Of a DNA stretch of 64,000 nucleotides, positions 19,268 to 64,000 are shown piece by piece. Where the stretch lies: positions 34,534,001 to 34,598,000 of the forward strand of contig OX597828.1 of NCBI GenBank assembly GCA_951406725.2. Direction: 5' to 3'. A program made the position numbers and the translations under genes. The notes beneath the pieces are model-generated. The model was not told the DNA's origin. It did no database searches and saw nothing but the letters and a program-made list of their open reading frames with translations. The DNA is from Octopus vulgaris (taxonomy: Eukaryota). Every line of letters starts with the position of its first letter. Within the stretch, counting starts at the first letter, position 1.

Positions 19268-19867
19268 CTTTTCTACTCTAGGCGCAAGGCCTGAAATTTT
19301 TGGTGAGGGGGGCAGTCGATCAGATCGACCCAAGTACGAAACTGGTACTGAATTTAACGACTCCAAAAGAATGAAAGGCATAATCGACCTCGACGGAATT
19401 TGAACTCAGAACGTAACGGCAGACGAAATACCGGCATGCTAACGTTTCTTATTTCTTTACTGCCCACAAGGGGCTACACACAGATGAGACAAACAAAGAC
19501 AGACAAACGGATTAAGTCGATTATATCGACACCAGTGCGTAACTGGTACTTAATTTATCGACCCCGAAAGGATAAAAGGCCAAATCGACCTCGGCGGAAT
19601 TTGAACGAGAACGTACCGGCATGCTAACGTTTCTTATTTCTTTACTGCCCACAAGGTGCTACACACAGACGGGACAAACAAGGACAGACAAACGGATTAA
19701 GTCGGTTATATCGACATCAGTGCGTAACTGGTACTTAATTTATCGACCCCTAAAGGATGAAAGGCAAAGTCGACCTCGGCGGAATTTGAACTCAGAACGT
19801 AACGGCAGACGAAATACCTCTAAGCATTTCGCCTGGCGTGCTAACGTTTCTGCCAGCTCGCCACCTT
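19268..19867 (-). mobile_element. SINE A trimer with a shared target-site duplication
   Basis: Three tandem units; cgcattgtacaagatatt (19250-19267) vs cgcattgcgcaagatatt (19868-19885). Confidence 0.85.
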
Positions 19868-21524: not shown

Positions 21525-23732
21525 TATGTTTGACTTTTGCTTTATATTTGTACAAGTTGGCTCCAAGTCTCACCCAGAGACCTCAAGAGACAACAGGGTT
21601 GGAAGTTCATGTTGTTGTTATGCCTAGTGTGCCATATATTTGGGGGGTGGGGATGTTGTACTAATGAATGTCTAAAAAAAAAAAGGTTTTTTTTTTTTTT
21701 TTTTTTTTTAAACCGAAAATTATGTTTGTTTTAAACCTTGAGATTACATAGAGAGTATTTTGCGTAGGATATGAGCAGTTCCCATGAGCACTATCTTTTG
21801 AACTTCTGCCATTTTTGGGTTTCCTGGTATCTGAGTTAGGTAGCTATCAGCCCCTTTTGCTATCATTATGACAACAGGTATTGTTTTAGTCTTCAGCTTC
21901 CACATTTTGCTGATTTCTATTTCAAGATCTTTATATTTGCTCAGTTTTTGGTAGGTCTTGACAGATACGTTTATATCGATTGGGACAGTCATATCAATGA
22001 GGAGGCATGTTCTTTGTTTGAAGTTTTTCAATATGATGTCTGGCCTATTTGCATCTATCTTCCTGTCAGTTTGAATGGTGAAGTTCCAGAGGAGTGAGAT
22101 GTGGTCATTTTCAAGCACTGGGGGTGGTTTGTGTTCCCACCAGTTTTTTTCATGGGGCAAATCCAGGTTTTTACAGATTACCCAGTGAATATATTGTGCA
22201 GCTCTATCGTGCCTGTTGAGATACTCTGTAGGCGCTAGAAGACTGCACTTGGAGACCACATGGTCAATGGTTTCATTTTGTTGCTTGCATACACGACACG
22301 TTGGACTGCTTCTGATCTTTAATATGTTGGCCTGGTAGTTTCTTGTTGGTAGGCATTGATCTTGAGCTGCTATGATAAACCCCTCTGTTTCAGATTTTAA
22401 GCCAGAGGCCATTAGCCATTGATGGGTCAGGGCTTTGTCGATATCTGCATTATTCGCTCTCTTTGGGTATTTGCCATAGAGAGGTTTTTCTTGCCATTTA
22501 TTATTCAGAATATCTAAGGCCGCAGTTTTGGCACGGGTTTTCATGCGCCTAGCTTTTTCTGTGCTTGTTTCTTGTATATCTATCTCTAATTCCGAAATTG
22601 GTTGTATTCGGAGTTCACTTAGATATTCCTTTGCCTGTTTTGTGACTGAGTATGATGCTTTCTTGTTTTCATGTTTTGAGACAAGTTTTAGCATCCAGTC
22701 CTCAGAGTTTTTCAGGTAGGTGTCTAGGCCAATTGTAGCAATCTTCATTGTTATTGCCAGTTGCAAAAGACCACGGCCTCCCTCTTTTCTTGGCAGATAT
22801 AGTCGTTCTGTATCTGCCTTAGGGTGGTGCATTCTATGCATTGTCAACAGTTTCCTTATTTTTCTGTCGAGCTGACATATTTCAGTAATTGACCAGTTAA
22901 CAATATTGAAACTGTAAGTCACGACTGGTATAGCTAATGCATTGATTGCTTCGATCCTGTTTCTTGCATTCAGCTCTGTCTTGAGTATTGCTCTCACTCT
23001 TCGATAGCATTCTCTCCTGATCCTTTCCTTCATCTCTGAATGCCTTATTCCGTTCCCTTCAATTATCCCTAGGTACTTGTAGCTCTCCGCTGGGTCTAGT
23101 TCTTTTATGACATTCTGTTGGTCAAGGTTAACGTTAGATGTTTCTGTCATTTTTCCTTTGATAAAGGTAGCCTTTGCACATTTATCGAGGCCGAATTGCA
23201 TTCTGATGTCGTCACTGAATTGTTTGACTATCGCTAGTAAGCCCTTGAGTTGTTGATCATTTTTTGCAAAAAGCTTTAAATCATCCATGTAAACGAGATG
23301 ATTTATATTTTTATCAAACATTTTATACCCGTACTGCGCGTCATTGAGCAGCTTTGAGAGAGGTATTAAGGATAAACAAAAGAGGAGTGGTGACAGTGAG
23401 TCACCCTGGAAAATGCCACACGAAATTTTTACATCACCAGCATTTAGGGATTCACTGTCACTGTTCAGAGTTAGTGTGGTTCTCCATGATCTCATACTTA
23501 CAGTCAAGAAGTTTCGCAGAGTTGGTGCTATCTTATACATTTCAAGGCATTTCCTAATCCAGCTATGTGGTAGGCTATCAAAAGCCTTTTTATAGTCTAT
23601 CCAGGCTATTGATAAGTTTTTGTGTCGTTTGTGACAATCTTCTAAGATCATCTTATTGATGAGTAGTTGGTCTTTACAGCCGTAGGATCCACGTTTACAT
23701 CCTTTCTGTTCATTAGGGAATATGCTGCTGTC

Positions 23733-23734
<2 letters not shown>
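21524..23734 (-). mobile_element. R4/Dong-clade non-LTR retrotransposon, 5'-truncated, inserted in (TAA)n
   Basis: RT plus restriction-like endonuclease ORF; (TTA)n abuts both junctions (to 21523 and from 23735). Confidence 0.9.
21744..23734 (-). CDS. Reverse transcriptase + CCHC knuckle + PD-(D/E)xK restriction-like endonuclease (partial; first ~37 aa of the predicted ORF are flank and microsatellite)
   Basis: [83 protein letters not shown]. Confidence 0.9.
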
Positions 23735-23775
<41 letters not shown>

Positions 23776-23900
23776 GTTATTATTACTGATATATCATTTA
23801 TGTTCGTAGTGTATTTCCCTATACAGTAATGAAACACGTGTAACATGAAATTAAAAACGTACCGAATTTTTCAACCTTTCTTTCAACGCACACACACATA

Positions 23901-32033: not shown

Positions 32034-34035
32034 TGATTGATTGATTGATTGATTCTAGTTTCAGCTTATGAGATGTGGCCATGCTGGGGCACCGCCATTT
32101 GGTGTTGCTACTTGGTTTCACTTCATGGAGGCTTTCTAGCAACTGCTATTTGGTGCATGAGAGAGTTCGATGCAGCTGCCCTCATCTGCCCGTCCTGCCG
32201 TGAAGTTGGTTCATCTGGGACACCTGACAGGAAGAGATCCAGCTTCATTTTAAAGACATCTGTATCCACCCCATGCAGGTCTCTCAGGTTCTTCGGGAGG
32301 ATATTGAAGAGCTGTGGTCCTCGGAAGCCCAGGCTATCACAGAATCTTGTCCTACATCTTGATGGCAGGTTTGGAGTCCTAGGCACCACGCAGTGGCGCC
32401 CAGTTCTGGCATTTGCGTAACTCTCGATGCCAAAGTTCAGGACACTTCCCTCCAGGATCTTCCAGATGTATATTATGGCATATCTTTCCCGCCTACGCTC
32501 CAGGGAATATAATTTTAATCTCTTGAGTCTTTCCCAGTAGCTTACATTCTGCATAGAGGCTATCTTCTTTGTGTAGCTTCGTTGGATCGCCTCAAGTTCT
32601 GTGATCAACTTGACACTGGATGGTGACCATAGCTGAGAGCAATAGTCAAAGTGGCTTAGGACAAGTGTCTTCCAGAGGACCATCATGGTTTCTTGTTCTC
32701 TTGTTCTAAAGGTTCTAAGAATCCATCCAGCCAGCCGTCTACATTTCATTGTCAGTTTAGCAACATGTACATGAAAGGTCGCGTCATCACTCATGTGAAT
32801 ACCCAGGTCACGCACTGATTGTGCCTCTGGGATTGCAATCCCTCCGGGTCCAGTGTATTCATTGGGTATTGCATTCAGTTTTGCATGCTGATAGTATAAA
32901 GCTTGAAACTTTCCAGCATTGAACTGCATGCTATTCTTTTCAGCCCACTTGTATATTTCGTCCAGCTCACATTGCAGGTGTTTAGTGTCCTCAAGGTTCT
33001 GTATTGCCTGTGAAACTTTTGTATCATCTGCATAACTTGTGATCGTGGCTCTCTGCGTGGCTGAGGGCATGTCTGAGAGGGCCATTATGAACAGTAGTGG
33101 TCCCAGAACAGTGCCCTGCGGAACACCGCTCACTATTTGTGTGTTAATGGAGGTGGCCCCATTGGCTACTACCACCTGACTTCTATCCTTCAGAAAGTCA
33201 TGAAGCCATTCTCCCAGTTTTCCAACTATGTTGAGATCACGCAGTTTGTGACATATCATTCCATGATCGACTTTATCAAAGGCCTTTGCAAAGTCGAGAT
33301 ATATCACTTCCACATTTGAGTGGTTGAGCAGCCGTTTCAGCACCCAGTCATAGTGTTGTAGGAGCTGAGTTAAACAGCTTCTCCCTGGTCGGAAACCATG
33401 TTGGGTGTCGGGCAGCAAGTCATTCTCTTCAAGGAAAGTGATCAGCTTCCTTCTGACTATTCGTTCCATGACCTTGCTGATGTGTGAGGTCAGAGAGATA
33501 GGTCTATAGTTCTTGGCTTCCGCTCTGCTACCTCCTTTATGAATGGGGCATATTTTACCTTCCTTCAGTTTTCCTGGAAGTTTGCCAGATGCAAGGAAGC
33601 TCTGAAAGAGGAACTGCAGTGGTTTTGCTAGGACTCTCTTACATGCTTTTAGGAGGATTGCCGGGAATCCATCGGGGCCAGTAGCTGAGTCTGTTTTCAT
33701 TTCATCTATAGCCTTGGTTACATCGTCTTCCTTTATATCGATGTAATCTATCGTCGCCGCCTCTGATTTTATATCTGCAGTGGTAAAAAAGTCAGTTGGA
33801 TTGGTGATTTGGAGATGCCCAAGGGGTGGAGTGAAAACACTCTTGAATTGCTCATTCAGTATTTCACTTACCCTCATTGGTTTTCCTGTAAGTGTGCCAT
33901 CCTTTTCGAGGAGTGGCCCTATTCTACAGTGCACTGTAGCTGTTTCTTTGGCATACCTGTAGAAAGCTCTGGGGTTAGATTTTATGTTTTCTATAGCCCA
34001 GGCTTCTTTGTCTGCTCTTTCTTTTTCATGGGAGA

Positions 34036-34036
<1 letters not shown>
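32031..34036 (-). mobile_element. CR1-type LINE, 5'-truncated, (AATC)n tail, inserted in (TA)n
   Basis: Uninterrupted RT ORF, short 3' UTR, (GATT)n at 32031-32054, (TA)n at both junctions. Confidence 0.9.
32123..34036 (-). CDS. LINE ORF2 reverse transcriptase (endonuclease lost; predicted N-terminus is microsatellite)
   Basis: [72 protein letters not shown]. Confidence 0.92.
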
Positions 34037-34072
<36 letters not shown>

Positions 34073-34081
34073 TAGATAGAT

Positions 34082-34144
<63 letters not shown>

Positions 34145-34681
34145 GCGGTGTACGTACACTTTGTTCTCTTATATGTAAGTACATATTTCACTAAACTTTG
34201 TACGACTTCAACACTCTCTCTCCCCTCCTTAATTCTTTTGCTCCTCTTTTTCTCTCTCTTCTCTTCTCATGTAACCGCTGACCTTTTGCGTCGGACCACC
34301 GTCACGGTCACATCGTACTTTTCCTCTGCCGTAAGGCTTAATTCTCAACGCGCCAGCTGAATTCAATTCGTCTCCAGTCGAAAGACGCCTGTTGTTATGT
34401 CCTGTTATTATTATTATTGTTTTGTTTTTGTATTTATATTGTATTATTTTTTGTTTTTTTTGTATTATTTTTGTATTTATATTCGTGTAACATCGTTCGT
34501 TTTTCCGTCCTTGTTTCGTATAAATTTGATCCTTTTTCCAAGAAATCTAATGCCCTTAGCTTAGTTTTTCCTTGGGGCTGGCCAGATTGGAGCAATCTCA
34601 AGACTAATCAACCGAAATTGCGAGGATGATCCGGTTCTTGTATCGTCTATTTGGATTCTTTGCGTTCTTGTCCCATTTTGC

Positions 34682-48967: not shown

Positions 48968-49067
48968 NNNNNNNNNNNNNNNNNNNNNNNNNNNNNNNNN
49001 NNNNNNNNNNNNNNNNNNNNNNNNNNNNNNNNNNNNNNNNNNNNNNNNNNNNNNNNNNNNNNNNNNN
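48968..49067. other. Assembly gap (100 N)
   Basis: Run of n. Confidence 1.
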
Positions 49068-49109: not shown

Positions 49110-49480
49110 AAGGCGGCGAGCTGGCAGAAACGTTAGCACGCCGGGCGGAAGGCGTAGCCGTATTTCGTCTGCCGCTACGTTTTGAGTTCAAATTCCGCCG
49201 AGGTCGACTTTGCCTTTCATCCTTTTGGAGTCGATAAATTAAGTACCAGTTACGCACTGGGGTCGATGTAATCGACTTAATCCGTTTATCTGTCCTTGTT
49301 TGTCCCCTCTGTGTTTAGCCCCTTGTGGGTAGTAAAGAAATAGGTATTCCGCCGAGGTCGACTTCGCCATTCATCCTTTCGAGGTCGTTAAATTAAGTAC
49401 CAGTTGCGTACTGGGGTAGATCTACTCGACTTGCCCCCTCCCCCAAAATTTCGGGCCTTGTGCCTGGAGTACAAAAGGAT
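49110..49480 (+). mobile_element. SINE A dimer (long tail, then short tail)
   Basis: Full unit to ~49341, then restarts at ttccgccgaggtcgac. Confidence 0.88.
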
Positions 49481-50140
49481 ATACGTACGAATCAGCCAGA
49501 GTATATACAAAATAACATATGTTCTTGCCTGGATTGCCTTTTACACTTTATTGTACATCTTGTTCTTGCCTTCTTATAACTGTAATTATTTAATTACTTA
49601 TAAATATAATATGTCCATATATCAACTTTTATATTTACGTTGATTATAACAGAATATTTTGGTTCTACGTATCAGCATGGCATTGACGTTGTCCAGGTTT
49701 TTCGTAAAGAAACCTAGCAAAGACCATATGCGGAACACAGTTTATTGCTAGTCGCCCGTCGAAGCGGAAATGTGACACTTCAATAATGCCTCACTCTAAT
49801 TCAACTTTGAACACGCCCTACACACCGAATGTGTCTATAGATATTTCCGTTTCCTCCCCACATTTTCTCCTTCATATAACCACTACCTCTACCCCACCTA
49901 AATACATCTAATCTTTTAACGTCTCACTTTACGATCGTTTATTTTTACTTGTATGTTTTTCTTTATATCTCCTCATTGTTGAATCCAGTTTACTTCTATA
50001 TGAGTCTGTCTGTCTGTCATTAGTCCTTCTTTGTTCTTCTCCCCCTCTCCATCTCAGTCAGTCTTTATCCACTTATAACCTGTCTCCCTTCTGTCTTTCT
50101 CTTTGTCTATGTATCTATCTGTCTGTCAGTCTGTCTACTT

Positions 50141-50360
50141 TCGTAGCGTAGTGGATAAAGGCGTTGGTTAATGCAATGCAATCACCTTGAGGTTCTCAGT
50201 TCAATCCAAAGGAGAGGCACGAGAATGAATCGCAAGACACCTGAAGAAGGATGGAGAATACAACAGCCGAAACGCAGTGAAAATTAGCAATCAAGATGAG
50301 GACATCAGTCCGACCAATATAAACAGTGCACATAACATAAATTCCTCCTCTCAGAAATTT
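50141..50360 (+). mobile_element. Candidate SINE: tRNA-like head joined to a Penelope-type hammerhead-like tail
   Basis: A box TAGCGTAGTGG (50144-50154), B box GTTCAATCC (50199-50207), CTGAAGA-a-ggatg...cagcc-GAAAC (50241-50273). Confidence 0.5.
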
Positions 50361-50392
50361 AGTATTGTACTTCTCTCTCCTTATCTCTTTCT

Positions 50393-53709: not shown

Positions 53710-54016
53710 GTGCGTGCGTGTTCTATGCACAGCCTGGACAGAACGTGACTTATTTCCGTTAAATATCCATATGATAAAGACTGCGAATAATATACATTTC
53801 TGCGAAAGTACATTAACTTATGTGTGTATGTATGTCTATGTATGTATATCTATGCCCATGTACGTACATTTATGAGTATGCACATGTGCGTACGGATGTG
53901 TATGCATATGTATGCACATGCACACATATGTACATGTCTGTATGTATACATAAGTGCATGTGCCTATGTGTCCAAATGTGTATGAATATGTATTGATATA
54001 ACCAATGCATTTATGC

Positions 54017-54048
<32 letters not shown>

Positions 54049-54804
54049 GAACTGCAGTCGTGGATCAAAAAGAGGCCGAGGAAGGGCGAATGGCACCGCG
54101 AGTGTCGCGTTGCTCTCAAGCAACTCTGCCGTCCTGGGTCGACCTTAAGTGACTTCAACACAACCAAAGCATTCTATAGGGGTTTAGTGGAGGGGAGGTA
54201 CGACGACGAGCTCGGGGCGAACCTGGACGTCGACGAGGAGTACCTGACCCGCCTGTTCAGGACGACTTTCGGGCCAGGGCCCATGGACAACTTCCAGAGA
54301 TCCCTGGCCTGGCAGTGCTACCGAGAAGCGCTACCCGTTCGGGATAAGCTCTACAGACACGGCTCGAGAAACACGGGGCCGACCTGCCCGAGATGCGGTC
54401 AGAGCGACGAAACCGTTCTGCACGCACTCGTTCAGTGTCCAACAATTTCCGACCTGTGGGCTTATGTCGAACAACTGCTGTCACGTGTGGGACGAGTCGG
54501 TTTATCAGCTGAGTCTATCGTCAATATTGTCACGCCTCCTTCCTTCAAACGGGAAGGAAGAGCTATTTTCATCATCCTTGTGGCTATGGCGAAAGAATGT
54601 ATCTGGTGGACGCGTCTGAAAGGATTGGAGACAAACACTTTCCTCTCTGGTCAATCTCTCATCAACTTCTTCAAGTACCACTTGAAAAGGAAAGTGAGAG
54701 TAGAGAGGCAAGTTTTGTCTAGCGAATGTTTTAAAAAAAGATGGGTGAATGTAGCAAGAATGGCACGTATGAATGACGAAGCCACCTTGAGCATAGTCCT
54801 ATGA
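54049..54804 (+). CDS. LINE ORF2 C-terminal zinc-binding (zf-RVT-like) region, partial
   Basis: AWQCYREALPVRDKL...CPRCGQSDETVLHALVQCP...IWWTR. Confidence 0.8.
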   Translation, partial: ELQSWIKKRPRKGEWHRECRVALKQLCRPGSTLSDFNTTKAFYRGLVEGRYDDELGANLDVDEEYLTRLFRTTFGPGPMDNFQRSLAWQCYREALPVRDKLYRHGSRNTGPTCPRCGQSDETVLHALVQCPTISDLWAYVEQLLSRVGRVGLSAESIVNIVTPPSFKREGRAIFIILVAMAKECIWWTRLKGLETNTFLSGQSLINFFKYHLKRKVRVERQVLSSECFKKRWVNVARMARMNDEATLSIVL

Positions 54805-57964: not shown

Positions 57965-59015
57965 CGTAAACTTAACGAATTCCAAACACTTCTAAATGAA
58001 ATAAATGAAAACCTCCAATTTACGATAGAGTACAGTCAGGAACAACTACCGTTTTTAGATATCCTTATTAAGAAAGTCGGAGACAAAATAGAGACAGATA
58101 TCTATTACAAACCCACAGACTCGAAGCAGTACCTGCCATTTGATTATTGCCACCCGAGACACACCAGGATGAATATCCCATTTTGTTTAGCCAAAAGAAT
58201 ATGCACAATAATATGAAACGCAAACACCCGTTAGACACGACTCCAGGAATTGAAAACCACGCTCATCAATAGTAATTACCCGCAACTCTTAATCGACAAT
58301 ACGATCCAACGAGTACTTAAATTAAATACACAAGAACTTAGACAACCAAGACCAAAGAAGGAAGAAAAATTGAAAACCCTGCCTTACATTTCCACACACA
58401 ACCAACATAACAATGAGGCCTTCGACACTATTCTCCACAGCATAGCTCCACTCAAGAGAAACCCAAAGATGAATCAAATCCTCAAAACATACCCAATCAT
58501 GAAAAGTAAGAGACAACCAAAATCAATGAAAAAGATTTTAACTCAGGCCTAATTACTCCCAACAATAACCGCTAAGCCGACAGTAAAAAAATGCGGGAGA
58601 CCAAACTGTGGGATTTGTATCAGCATAACAGAGGGATCAGGACAGCGATTAGAACAAGGACATAATTTCATCATAAAAACTAATTTTACATGCGCATCGG
58701 AGAACTTGATTTAATTACATGCTCGGGATGTAAACGGCAATATATTGGGCAACAAAGGCGGCGCGCTGGCAGAATCGTTAGCTCGCCGGGCGAAATGCGT
58801 AGCTGTATTTCGTCTGCCGTTACGTTCTGAGTTCAAATTCCGCCGAGGTCGACTTTGCCTTTCATCCTTTCGGGGTCGATAAATTAAGTACCAGTTACGC
58901 ACTGGGGTCGATATAATCGACTTAATACCTATGTCTGTCCTTGTTTGTCCCCTCTAGCCCCTTGTGGGTAGTAAAGAAATATGTTGGGCAACAAAAAACA
59001 GCCTACGTCAAAATG
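57965..59015 (+). pseudogene. Penelope-like retroelement fragment (RT thumb, Cys-rich linker, GIY-YIG start)
   Basis: [40 protein letters not shown]; CGRPNCGIC; ITCSGCKRQYIGQ; in-frame TGA, TAG and TAA stops. Confidence 0.88.
58756..58980 (+). mobile_element. SINE family A inserted in the PLE YIG motif
   Basis: TSD aatatattgggcaacaa (58739-58755) vs aatatgttgggcaacaa (58978-58994). Confidence 0.92.
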
Positions 59016-60568: not shown

Positions 60569-60855
60569 CGGTGGCAAGGGGGAGTGACGTCACGTCAAGA
60601 AGAGGAGGCGTTTGAGCAGCGTCTTTCTTCGTCAAGACTTTGAGATGAACAAAGTGTGGAGCGGATGACAGAGGGATGGAAGGTTCTGACGAGAGTTTGG
60701 AGTAGTTGGGTACGGTGGCAAGAGGGAAGTGACGCCACGTCAAGAAGAGGAGCCGTTTGAGCAGCGTTTTTCTTCGTCAAGACTTTGAGATGAACAAAGT
60801 GTGGAGCGGATGACAGAGGGAGAGAAGGTTCTGACGAGAGAATGGGGTAGTGGGG
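60569..60855. repeat. ~144-bp GC-richer tandem duplication
   Basis: cggtggcaag...gtcaagaagagga...ggttctgacgagag occurs twice; followed by a short duplicated ccaaca..ttcttatcctggt. Confidence 0.9.
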
Positions 60856-61647
60856 TGCGCCCAACAGCTTCTTATCCTGGTATAGGTACGTCCAACAAGT
60901 TCTTATCCTGGTGGAGTGTGGTGTTATACTCTGTCCTGAAGTTTGTCTCGACGTAAGAACATTCTTATTTTTGCTGTCCTTTCTACAAAGTCTTAAATTC
61001 CTGGCAGGAAGTTTCAGGTTTTTACAATAGATTAATCGCTGATATCTAAGTCATGGACGAGGCATTTCATTTAACAAGCTTTCCAACATTTACATTATCA
61101 TAGAAGCTTTTAATAAATTAACTGCTAGATTGAATGTTAGCTTTGGTTTCTAGGTTAAGTTCTAGAGACCCGTTGAAGCATTTGTATGCTCCACAGTTGG
61201 TGTCGTCACGTACAAAATGAATCTACACGATGCATAGAGGAGAACAAAGCATTAAGCAAATTATTGTGCTTATTGGCTAAGTTTACGAGTCCATGAATTA
61301 CAGTTTCATATTGCAGCAGAGAAATTGACTACAGTATTATGCAGATGACAACAGCAGATAGAAATTATTGGCTCAAATGCTAAAAAGTAAATTGTGGACG
61401 ACTTACTTCCCTTGGGTCCTGAAACCTAACTACCGAACAGATCAACACTCTTCAATATTTTTGTGCTATGTTTAATATAATTGTGATTTAAAATGCTTTC
61501 TCTACTTTTCCAAGGTATCTTATTGTGTATACAGACACATACATAGACGCATGTTTTAAATGTTTACATATTTCAGAAGGACATCAGCCAGCAGGAAGGA
61601 GAGAAATGTCTTCTAAATAATTTTGAAGAAACAAGTTATAAGTTATA

Positions 61648-61866: not shown

Positions 61867-62637
61867 TTAAACTGTTATCACTTGTCTTAATGCGCGCCTA
61901 GAGGAAAGTTGATATCATCTTCCAAGTAACTGCAATTTAATTCCCTTCTACTTCATGAAACTTTAAGCCATGAAATACGTACAAGTTACCAGTAATATTT
62001 ACAACTACACTCTCACTCTCTCTCTGTCTCCATCTCTCACACACACATGCAACGAGGCGTACATCGTTTACAACCCGTTTATCACTTTTTTCTTGCGTCT
62101 TTTACTTGTTCCAGTCAGTAGACTGCGACCATTCTGGAGCACGAGGAACGGTTCTCACTGTGAGATTTAATCTTGGAAAAGAGCCAAGAGACTTTGTTTT
62201 TGTTAAACACGCAACATACTGCAAATAACGTCATCAAACAATCAAACAGATGTTTCGATATAATTTCGATTCCTCAGTTACAGACACTGCCTTTGTCGTT
62301 TTGAATTACAATATATATATATATATAACGGGAAGCTTTATGAAACTAGACAAAAGACGAAGGCAGGTGGAAAACAAACAAACAATTGTATTAGTATGGC
62401 GCTCAGGAAATATAAATAAAACAAGTCTTTAACGTTTCGAGCCTACGCTTTTCAACAGAAAGATACACAGAGAGAAAAAAAACACAGAAAGAAGGAGAGA
62501 AAAAAATGCGTGCAGTAACTAACGAATCAACATGGCGATCTGATTTCGGCCAGAGGTCAAAGATCAAACATGAGACGCGAGAGCGAAATAAGGGGAGATA
62601 ATAGGGATGATAATAGGGTTGAATGACCCTAGGATAG

Positions 62638-62860
62638 GTCTGGACAGGCGTATGTATGGGGTTGGTGTATGTATTAGTATGTATTAGTATGTATTAGTAC
62701 GTATTAGTATGTATAAGTGTGTGTGTGTGTGTATGAGAGAGTATAAGTGCGTATGAGGGGTCTGGACGTGTGTATGTATAGGGTTGGTGTATGTATTAGT
62801 ATGTATTAGTATGTATTAGTACGTATTAGTATGTATTAGTTGGTGTATGTATTAGTATGG
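62638..62860. repeat. GTATGTATTA 10-mer array within a ~120-bp duplication in the PLE 3' region
   Basis: ggtctggac...gggttggtgtatgtattagtatgtattag appears twice. Confidence 0.85.
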
Positions 62861-64000
62861 CACATCATATATGATGTGATGTGTAAAGTCGTGTGGTGTA
62901 GTGAGGAGAAGAGGGGGAGGGGGAGAAGAGGGGGAGAGAAGGGGAGGGGAAGGAGAGGGGGAAGAGGAGAGGAGGGGGGAGAGAAAGGAGGGGGAGGAAG
63001 GAGGAAAGGGGGGAGGAAGGAGGAAAGAGGGGGAGGGGGAGAGAGAAGCGGAGTGAGGGAACAGAGGGAAGAGGGAAGGAGGGAGGGAGAAAGAGGGAAG
63101 AAGGGAAGGGGAGTAGGGGTGAAAGGATGAAGGACTGAAGAAGTAGGGGTCGGGGGGAAGGATAGGTGAGGAGGGGGAGAGGGGGTTAGATGAGGAGGGG
63201 GAGAGTTGAGACCAAATGGCGTATAAGAGCGAAGAGAGAAGATTAATTCCTGTTCACGGCGCAAACGGGAATCCGGATGGCCTCTGTGTAAGGACAAACC
63301 GAACACAGATAGGTGTTGCAAGGAGTGATCGGTGGAGCGGAAATGGCGTGAGACCGGTGTGTCGTTCGCAAGGTGGATGTCACGAAGGTGTTCCGCGAAC
63401 CGGTCAGCCAAGCGGCGTCCCGTTTGTCCGATGTACAAGGAATTGCAGAGAGAGCAAGAGACGCAATAGATAATATTGCTGGAGGTGCAGGTGAAGGAGT
63501 GGATGATGGGATAGGGTCGATGGTGGGTGCTAGTGAGGCGGGTGGTGTTGGAGAGGTAAGGGCAAGTGCGGCAACGTGGGCGGGAGCAGGGGAACGAGCC
63601 GGGTTGGGAGGTAGGGTCAGGGAAGGAGCTATGGACCAAAAGGTCTCGAAGGTTGTGGGCTCGTTTGAAAGAGGGGAGGGGTCGGTTAGGGAAGAGGTGT
63701 GAAGTGGACGGGTCGGACTGGAGATGACGGAAAGCTCGAAGAATGGTGCGTTGGAGACGTAGGGTCGTGGGGTGGTAAGTGAGGGGAAAAGGGAGGCGGG
63801 AGACTACAGGGCGGGTTCGGGGAGAGAGAGCAGATACACGGTCCACGGACCGTGCTCTGGCAAGGGTGGTGTGGATAGTGGTGAGGGGGTATCCACGTAG
63901 GGTGAAGTGGTGAGCCATACGTTGAGACTGAGTCTCAAAGTCATGGTCGTCACTACAGAGCCTACGTAGACGGAGGAATTGGGAATAGGGGATGGAAAGC
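62836..64000 (-). CDS. PLE RT thumb + Cys-rich linker + GIY-YIG endonuclease (partial)
   Basis: SIPYSQFLRLRRLCS upstream of the called Met; CSRPRCRTC; NIIYCVSCSLCNSLYIGQTGRRLADRFAEH; RREQELI..L....PFGLN. Residues after GLN are a pyrimidine-rich tract. Confidence 0.88.
   Translation of the reverse strand, partial: LSIPYSQFLRLRRLCSDDHDFETQSQRMAHHFTLRGYPLTTIHTTLARARSVDRVSALSPRTRPVVSRLPFPLTYHPTTLRLQRTILRAFRHLQSDPSTSHLFPNRPLPSFKRAHNLRDLLVHSSFPDPTSQPGSFPCSRPRCRTCPYLSNTTRLTSTHHRPYPIIHSFTCTSSNIIYCVSCSLCNSLYIGQTGRRLADRFAEHLRDIHLANDTPVSRHFRSTDHSLQHLSVFGLSLHRGHPDSRLRREQELIFSLRSYTPFGLNSPPPHLTPSPPPHLSFPPTPTSSVLHPFTPTPLPFFPLSPSLLPSSLCSLTPLLSPPPPLSSFLPPFLLPPPPFSPPSSPLPPLLPLPFSPPLLPLPLFSSLHHTTLHITSYMMCHTNTYTN

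Follow-up and report, generated by a model that had tools for sequence, protein, structure and literature searches.

The window, the 64-kb stretch of Octopus vulgaris DNA analysed here, carries a 5'-truncated, decayed copy of a 308 nt non-coding, deleted Penelope/Poseidon-type element, which RNA polymerase III (Pol III) likely transcribed from the tRNA-like segment of its parent and which the parent's protein likely copied into the genome; we put the probability of this reading at roughly four in five. The family to which the copy belongs, here called family A, is very probably an internally deleted, non-autonomous Penelope-like element (PLE), and by alignment it is the ORF-less relative of a coding family, B, its nearest kin. 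Related to both is a second coding family, P. The original prediction of a non-autonomous element is therefore borne out by this ORF-less family.

The window copy, the sole copy of family A within the 64 kb, is on the forward strand at positions 50131–50369 and is 86.6% identical to positions 70–306 of the family unit, with a divergence of 11.6% from the family A majority sequence. The element first proposed at 50141–50360 is real, and its ends lie further out on both sides; under stricter scoring the 5' end falls at head +4, which is position 50144. Aligned with the unit, the copy begins at about the point where the tRNA-like head starts and reaches the long 3' end, and approximately 75 nt of the unit 5' of the head are absent. 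It has no inverted partner, and there is CT-rich microsatellite on its flanks.

All parts of the copy are on the forward strand. The tRNA-like head (50140–50220), homologous to the pseudo-LTR module of coding families B and P, contains the A box (50144–50154) and the B box (50199–50207) that had been predicted; 10 of 11 and 10 of 12 nucleotides, respectively, are the same in the A and P majorities. A linker (50221–50237) follows, within which is the family A deletion point, where family B has 121 additional nucleotides between head and hammerhead. Next is a minimal type I hammerhead of the PLE type (50238–50279), with an extra unpaired A before stem II and without stem III. Its 5' part, cac-CTGAAGA-a-ggatg (50238–50253), and its 3' part, cagcc-GAAAC-gca-gtg (50264–50279), were found as originally described, while the gap between the B box and the hammerhead, given as about 35 nt, exists and is 30 nt. 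What had been taken for an AT-rich tail (50280–50369) is, from the family alignment, the decayed start of the ORF, and thus 5' coding region, of the parent PLE.

The hammerhead cut in the window copy is predicted to be after 50276. The copy ends at +93 from this site, the distal of two preferred 3' ends of the family, the proximal of which would fall at about 50330–50335. Given a stem II mismatch at 50251 and the change U16.1>C at 50275, which accounts for the non-NUH cleavage triplet already noticed in this single decayed copy, the ribozyme is predicted to be dead and the copy to be a fossil.

The 2.8 Gb, microsatellite-rich genome was searched with positions 50141–50360. Of 846 candidates, 40 were scored, and these gave 44 matches, which are 74–85% identical, the self match apart. 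Head and hammerhead are spanned together in 26 of the 39 other best genomic places, so the two are linked as the original prediction supposed, and the exact 18-mer across the head-to-hammerhead junction occurs 27 times in the genome, its reversed control 0 times. Alignment of the matches gives a clear majority sequence with the stem II GGCTG/CAGCC and the triplet GUA. Where the window copy has the aberrant C, 43 of 51 family A copies have T, and the next base is A, also in 43 of 51; it is through these last two positions that the expected GAAACGUH is restored in the family.

The full hammerhead motif is present in the majority sequences and is intact in 4 of 51 copies of A, 5 of 61 of B, and 20 of 64 of P. 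The A and P majorities of the hammerhead are the same except at the free positions N7 and H17, at four positions of loop II, and at two bases on the flanks, a confinement that indicates selection on the hammerhead in the master lineages. Stem I in A and B is only 3 bp, and minimal hammerheads of this type are described as needing dimers and as cleaving poorly in vitro (PMC4209133).

Many copies of family A reach the roughly 75 nt 5' of the head, and the end of the tail joins directly onto that upstream part, giving the unit length of 308 nt. Thirty loci were fished with this junction and read by eye: in these the tail goes on into the "upstream" part and then mostly into the next head, with no run-on from the tail into an ORF seen. 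Seven of these loci (L062, L066, L072, L075, L084, L087, L089) have, also by eye, two hammerheads, about 290–310 nt apart. Among 37 copies with the fusion junction, 21 extend across a head of the A type, and in none does the insert of family B follow. The exact 17-mer at the junction of ORF start and ORF end is found at 14 genomic places, and its reversed control at 0. At about 14% divergence, the 27 and 14 exact words would by our own estimate represent roughly 400 and 180 places, and the copy number of family A is thus estimated at a few hundred.

In family A the 5' end of the ORF is therefore fused to its 3' end, and the linker bearing the ATG is deleted. From end to end, the monomers of A and B can be aligned with the pseudo-LTR and ORF start of P; both termini of family A are those of a coding PLE, the ORF is deleted, and the result has been amplified as a family of its own. 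By eye, the ORF-start and ORF-end sequences have a similar short word just before the fusion point (L061–L090 compared with L357–L364), which would suggest a template switch at microhomology.

Three DNA-level searches did not at first reveal the coding parent. Stop-free translation of the L072 tail together with the upstream part led to loci with long ORFs at 42–53% identity, and the 16 loci examined, of at least 150 listed, are copies of the coding PLE family P. This family has a unit of approximately 2.7 kb and a majority ORF of 2410 nt, and a single frame takes in an upstream ATG, the hammerhead, and the start of the ORF. An outside full-length relative, P0005, likewise reads through a peptide encoded by the hammerhead; the family A tail peptide alone has no match to P0005 (E 0.84). 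Copies of P match RVT_1 in Pfam at E 3e-6, just under the curated cut-off, and the endonuclease piece is not scored by Pfam. Their translations contain YADD/YVDD, DKG, and GIY-YIG-type motifs (some of the names as in PMC8557442) and are 52–69% identical to eight outside reverse transcriptase (RT) proteins. There is no CxxC linker in the P translations, unlike the two other PLEs of the window. P-like DNA is present in sequencing runs of at least five organisms, and none of the runs with this stretch is recorded as RNA.

B and P share one arrangement: ORF stop, about 30 nt, tRNA-like module, ATG linker, hammerhead, ORF start. In P, this was seen in 30 loci fished with the ORF end, where the pseudo-LTR has the module, then an (AAT)n stretch, the ATG linker, the hammerhead, and the tail; the module is on the majority line of these loci and scores at least 8 bits in 16 of the 30. 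The insert that distinguishes B from A contains an ATG aligning with the in-frame upstream ATG of P, and in three B loci there is coding sequence upstream. A search with one B ORF end gave 30 loci, of which 12 have coding homology, 69–80% to P, directly before a head of the window type; one of the others has a B head and 17 are P cross-matches. This homology, and the divergence of copies from their own majority (about 14% in B, about 8% in P), indicate that B is an older coding family. No intact full-length copy of B or P was seen, the longest B coding piece being about 940 nt. The B insert (e.g., L031, L358) also includes another, degenerate core that resembles a hammerhead, CTGAAG...GAAAC, with the intact core about 120 nt further downstream; the degenerate core is perhaps a relic of an internal duplication.

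The parent families have the features of endonuclease-bearing (EN+) PLEs: a single ORF with RT and C-terminal GIY-YIG, of which only the C-terminal part is seen in B, a minimal type I hammerhead within a pseudo-LTR that is repeated in partial tandem, inverted 5'-truncated copies, and a tail of 30–40 nt at one end. The tail of the window copy matches the pseudo-LTR of a coding PLE, as had been proposed. The likeness to described Penelope/Poseidon elements extends to the unpaired nucleotide before stem II of their minimal type I hammerhead (PMC4209133), to an ORF that starts at or before the hammerhead and encodes RT and then C-terminal GIY-YIG (PMC4209133, PMC11167929, PMC8557442), and to their partial tandems, inverted 5' copies, and 30–40 nt tail at one end (PMC8557442). 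The families described here differ from these in that there is a tRNA-like module with A and B boxes between the ORF stop and the hammerhead, and in that family A has neither ORF nor ATG.

Judged from its sequence, Pol III transcription of these elements is reasonably probable. Against a profile made from 25 distinct tRNA genes of the same genome, which cover few isoacceptors, the head scores 4.7 bits in the window copy, 13.2 in the family A majority, and 18.0 in the family P majority, and in each case 0 of 500 shuffles reach the score. Its best pairwise matches, among only these 25, are to tRNAs for Arg, Thr, and Ala; the Rfam tRNA model does not score the P heads. The most probable alternative accepts the same ancestry and makes the module a passenger, the 3' UTR of an ancestral PLE having trapped an old SINE or a fragment of a tRNA. 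Transcription would then be by Pol II or by read-through, which is what is assumed for other PLEs and for retrozymes; we consider this alternative rather unlikely. The boxes were kept between A and P as given above, whereas the spacer between them has diverged, with 19 of 42 positions the same, which counts against a passenger. In favour of a passenger is the weaker A box of the B majority, which has A at position 14 in 25 of 28 copies.

The runs of T that would terminate Pol III bear on both readings. The P majority ORF of 2410 nt has no run of four or more T, and neither do 4058 nt of ORF pieces from B, which overlap each other; such runs are rare in P copies, which have 8 across 34.7 kb. 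Two other PLE families of the genome have 4.8 and 3.5 of them per kb, rates in which T-rich non-coding parts are included, and the median is 2.9 per kb in 62 related ORFs; the long LINE-type RT reading frames of the window served as additional controls. That such runs are missing from B and P alike, though their ORFs are only 69–80% identical, argues against a passenger module. On the other side, the gap is not significant against P's own composition (0 compared with 2.0 +/- 1.2 expected; synonymous shuffle P=0.064) and is thus within chance, and 6 of the 62 related ORFs, which are without the module, are likewise free of such runs. The idea that T-run-free ORFs elsewhere are marks of the same promoter was rejected: in the 4 of these 6 that were inspected there is no B box, and T-runs are present in the 3' regions (loci L281, by its flank, L289–L291, and L328, likewise).

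The 5' ends of copies gather at the start of the head in both lineages, which also speaks against a passenger. They fall at head -8 to +15 in 25 of 44 A/B pieces and 16 of 24 P pieces, with flanking rates of 0.27 and 0.12, and in 19 of 28 A/B pieces (flanking rate 0.35) when the original search matches are left out. These counts exclude the primary matches of 90 loci fished with upstream sequence; they use BLAST ends, loci fished by score, and a bin chosen after the histogram had been seen, and a short palindrome at the start of the P head can shift the ends. RNA-seq reads from three unstranded runs of a related organism, for family P only, follow the DNA copy profile and reveal no start or end site, which would fit a passenger, as would the statement in a review that metazoan retrozymes seem to be without promoters (PMC7761336). 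Taken together, the conserved A and B boxes, the absence of T-runs from P and B, and the 5' ends at the head suggest that Pol III is used, and because the coding parent already has the tRNA-like segment before its hammerhead, the whole family is likely to be read in this way.

The insertion ends indicate how copies may have been made. Among 177 distinct pieces in loci L001–L120, 3' ends cluster at +52 to +66 (45 of 177) and +88 to +97 (45 of 177) from the cut site, about 35 nt apart, and reads of family P have two break-off sites 34 nt apart. There are 67 outward and 3 inward inverted pairs, with 34 long/short, 9 short/short, and 3 long/long ends, although these classes are crude and some loci are counted repeatedly. 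The 67 pairs have AT-rich junctions, and no regular duplication was evident by eye in the printed flanks. In a PLE from the anole, two internal RT start sites were likewise measured downstream of the hammerhead cut, and the main substrate in vitro was uncleaved RNA (PMC11167929). That insertions end some 55 and 92 nt beyond the cut site argues that uncleaved, or re-joined, RNA is the template, and mobilisation of family A by PLE machinery is, on these sequence signatures, well supported.

The events might then proceed as follows. Pol III would start at the head and read through the hammerhead into the next unit of a tandem master, since the unit has no T-run terminator. The PLE protein would bind the retained ORF-start region and nick AT-rich DNA, and reverse transcription would begin within the RNA, some 55 or 92 nt beyond the cut site, as for the anole PLE in vitro. 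Copying that stops at the 5' end of the RNA would leave a SINE-like copy running from head to tail, such as that in the window, and copying from a longer tandem RNA would leave copies of 1.5 to 2 units. Any hammerhead cleavage would need a dimer or a protein.

A different template is envisaged if family A is a Pol III retrozyme, in which tandem transcripts self-cleave to 308 nt monomers that circularise and undergo rolling-circle reverse transcription. This is compatible with ancestry from a deleted PLE, and we think it unlikely. There are tandem 308 nt units, each with a type I hammerhead and within the 150–400 nt size range of retrozymes, the unit is circularly permutable, dimer-length copies exist, and the hammerhead was under selection; moreover, circles have been shown for other animal retrozymes (PMC7229834) and multimer cleavage for the Schistosoma element Smα (PMC6765202). 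However, the same two 3' ends recur in the coding P family, whose unit is about 2.7 kb, no array of more than about two units is present among the loci examined, the 5' pile-up is at the head and not at the cut site, and the preference of the anole enzyme for uncleaved RNA points the other way.

An independent tRNA-derived SINE head could have been joined to the 3' end of a PLE, as in pairs of SINEs and LINEs, and this borrowing of a partner's end was the origin first suggested. It is now contradicted as an origin and, as an alternative, very improbable. The window copy does look exactly like such a SINE, with a tRNA-related head that has A and B boxes, and many copies start at the head. But the head is not independent of the partner, as a SINE beginning at its Pol III start would have it; it is embedded in the pseudo-LTR of the coding PLEs B and P themselves. 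In addition, family A retains the fusion of ORF start and ORF end, and upstream of its promoter it has a remnant of the ORF end, sequence of a kind that a plain SINE is unable to copy. The two other PLEs of the window were rejected as partners, being of other families, the young one with a different hammerhead; no tRNA module was found in 25 loci of each of these families, the copies of the older one mostly ending before the 3' UTR, which weakens the check. That a tRNA pseudogene and a PLE end are side by side by chance, which might be suspected because scores for the single copy are poor (ARAGORN makes no call at default settings, although the relaxed setting -ps85 calls the head, with 0 of 300 shuffles called; no Rfam tRNA or hammerhead match; folding z about -0.4), can be dismissed given the 26 of 39 places spanning both parts and the 27 exact 18-mers.

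Other elements are present in the window. The young PLE is the 3' part of a very young element of another family at 62300–64000 (reverse strand), with a CxxC linker before the endonuclease and its own minimal hammerhead at about 62427–62462. All of its best 40 genomic matches scored are approximately 100% identical over 501 nt, and it is therefore possibly still active. The older fragment at 57968–58745 (forward strand), from a third family with a CxxC linker, was used as a control and is interrupted by an abundant SINE at about 58768–58980. Two 145 nt tandem units at 60569–60856 each have a loose hammerhead-like core on the minus strand. The LINE-type RT frames, at about 32126–34168 and 21747–23870 (both reverse strand), have 681 and 708 codons, including low-complexity starts, and there is a further LINE-like fragment at 53986–54800 (forward strand). 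An assembly gap ends at 49067, after which 49113–49470 is a partial tandem of an abundant tRNA-headed SINE, the 3' part of which also makes a 185 nt tandem at 19429–19807.

The module looks to be specific to this lineage. A first scan of metagenomes found no relative; the second found 274, of which the best 80 were kept, 62 having at least 900 coding nt and 44 a usable 3' flank. In none of these 44 related PLE loci on metagenome contigs is there, within 450 nt, a tRNA-profile match of at least 5 bits or a pair of A and B boxes, although a profile of so few isoacceptors might fail to pick up divergent modules. A truncated PLE ORF in L279, from another organism, has a tRNA scoring 38.6 bits in Rfam about 420 nt upstream, at 2513–2580; no hammerhead was seen in the interval, and the tRNA is probably an unrelated neighbour. 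No description of a coding PLE with a tRNA-type promoter was found in the literature covered; Repbase/Dfam, subscription journals, bioRxiv supplements, and the repeat library of PMC13282606 are outside that scope and may include such families. The portions consulted of PMC13282606, PMC6962438, PMC7229834, and PMC8967140 describe no coding PLE with a tRNA module.

There are similarities to several known non-autonomous elements. In the Schistosoma elements Smα and Sjα, a Pol III promoter derived from a tRNA precedes a type I hammerhead, and in their tandem repeats one unit drives the next (PMC2770079, PMC6765202). Compared by description only, Smα has canonical hammerheads, and the sections consulted of these papers name no coding parent, whereas here the parent PLE is identified and itself has the tRNA module. 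Animal non-LTR retrozymes share the non-coding unit of about 300 nt, the type I hammerhead, and kinship to PLE pseudo-LTRs (PMC7229834, PMC7761336), and those of vertebrates have been proposed to be non-autonomous PLE derivatives (bioRxiv 10.64898/2026.07.22.740005). They are said to lack promoters and often to form long arrays that give circles (PMC7229834, PMC7761336); family A, in contrast, has an internal promoter-like module and, in the loci examined, arrays no longer than about two units. The TRIMp3 elements Helenus, Cassandra, and Ajax are also miniature and non-autonomous, with a small-RNA-derived Pol III promoter in a terminal repeat that is able to drive a downstream unit. These are LTR-type elements (PBS, PPT, 4–5 bp TSD) and are non-autonomous only (PMC10886601), while here the machinery is that of a PLE and the coding families have the module too; "Penelope" occurs 0 times in the text consulted of that paper.

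What makes the element of interest is chiefly its parent lineage, together with the hypothesis of Pol III use, which can be tested. In its fullest form, which we put forward tentatively and at somewhat less than even odds, a coding PLE lineage would have exchanged its promoter for one of the tRNA type, read by Pol III and situated in the pseudo-LTR, and would have cleared Pol III terminators from its unit of about 2.7 kb; the RT and endonuclease would be translated from an uncapped Pol III transcript, with the first codons running through the hammerhead, and deletion would spawn SINE-like and Smα-like miniatures. Were the Pol III reading true, a long ORF would here be read by Pol III, which is unusual, and a coding PLE with a defined A- and B-box promoter and a terminator-free body makes PLE transcription directly testable. 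Copies like that in the window would be annotated as SINEs, and the series from coding element to truncated pseudo-LTR copy to deleted miniature would derive a tRNA-headed ribozyme "SINE" from a single autonomous element. If so, SINEs may be born by simple deletion, without fusion of a head to a tail, and schistosome Smα may merit a search for a comparable coding parent.
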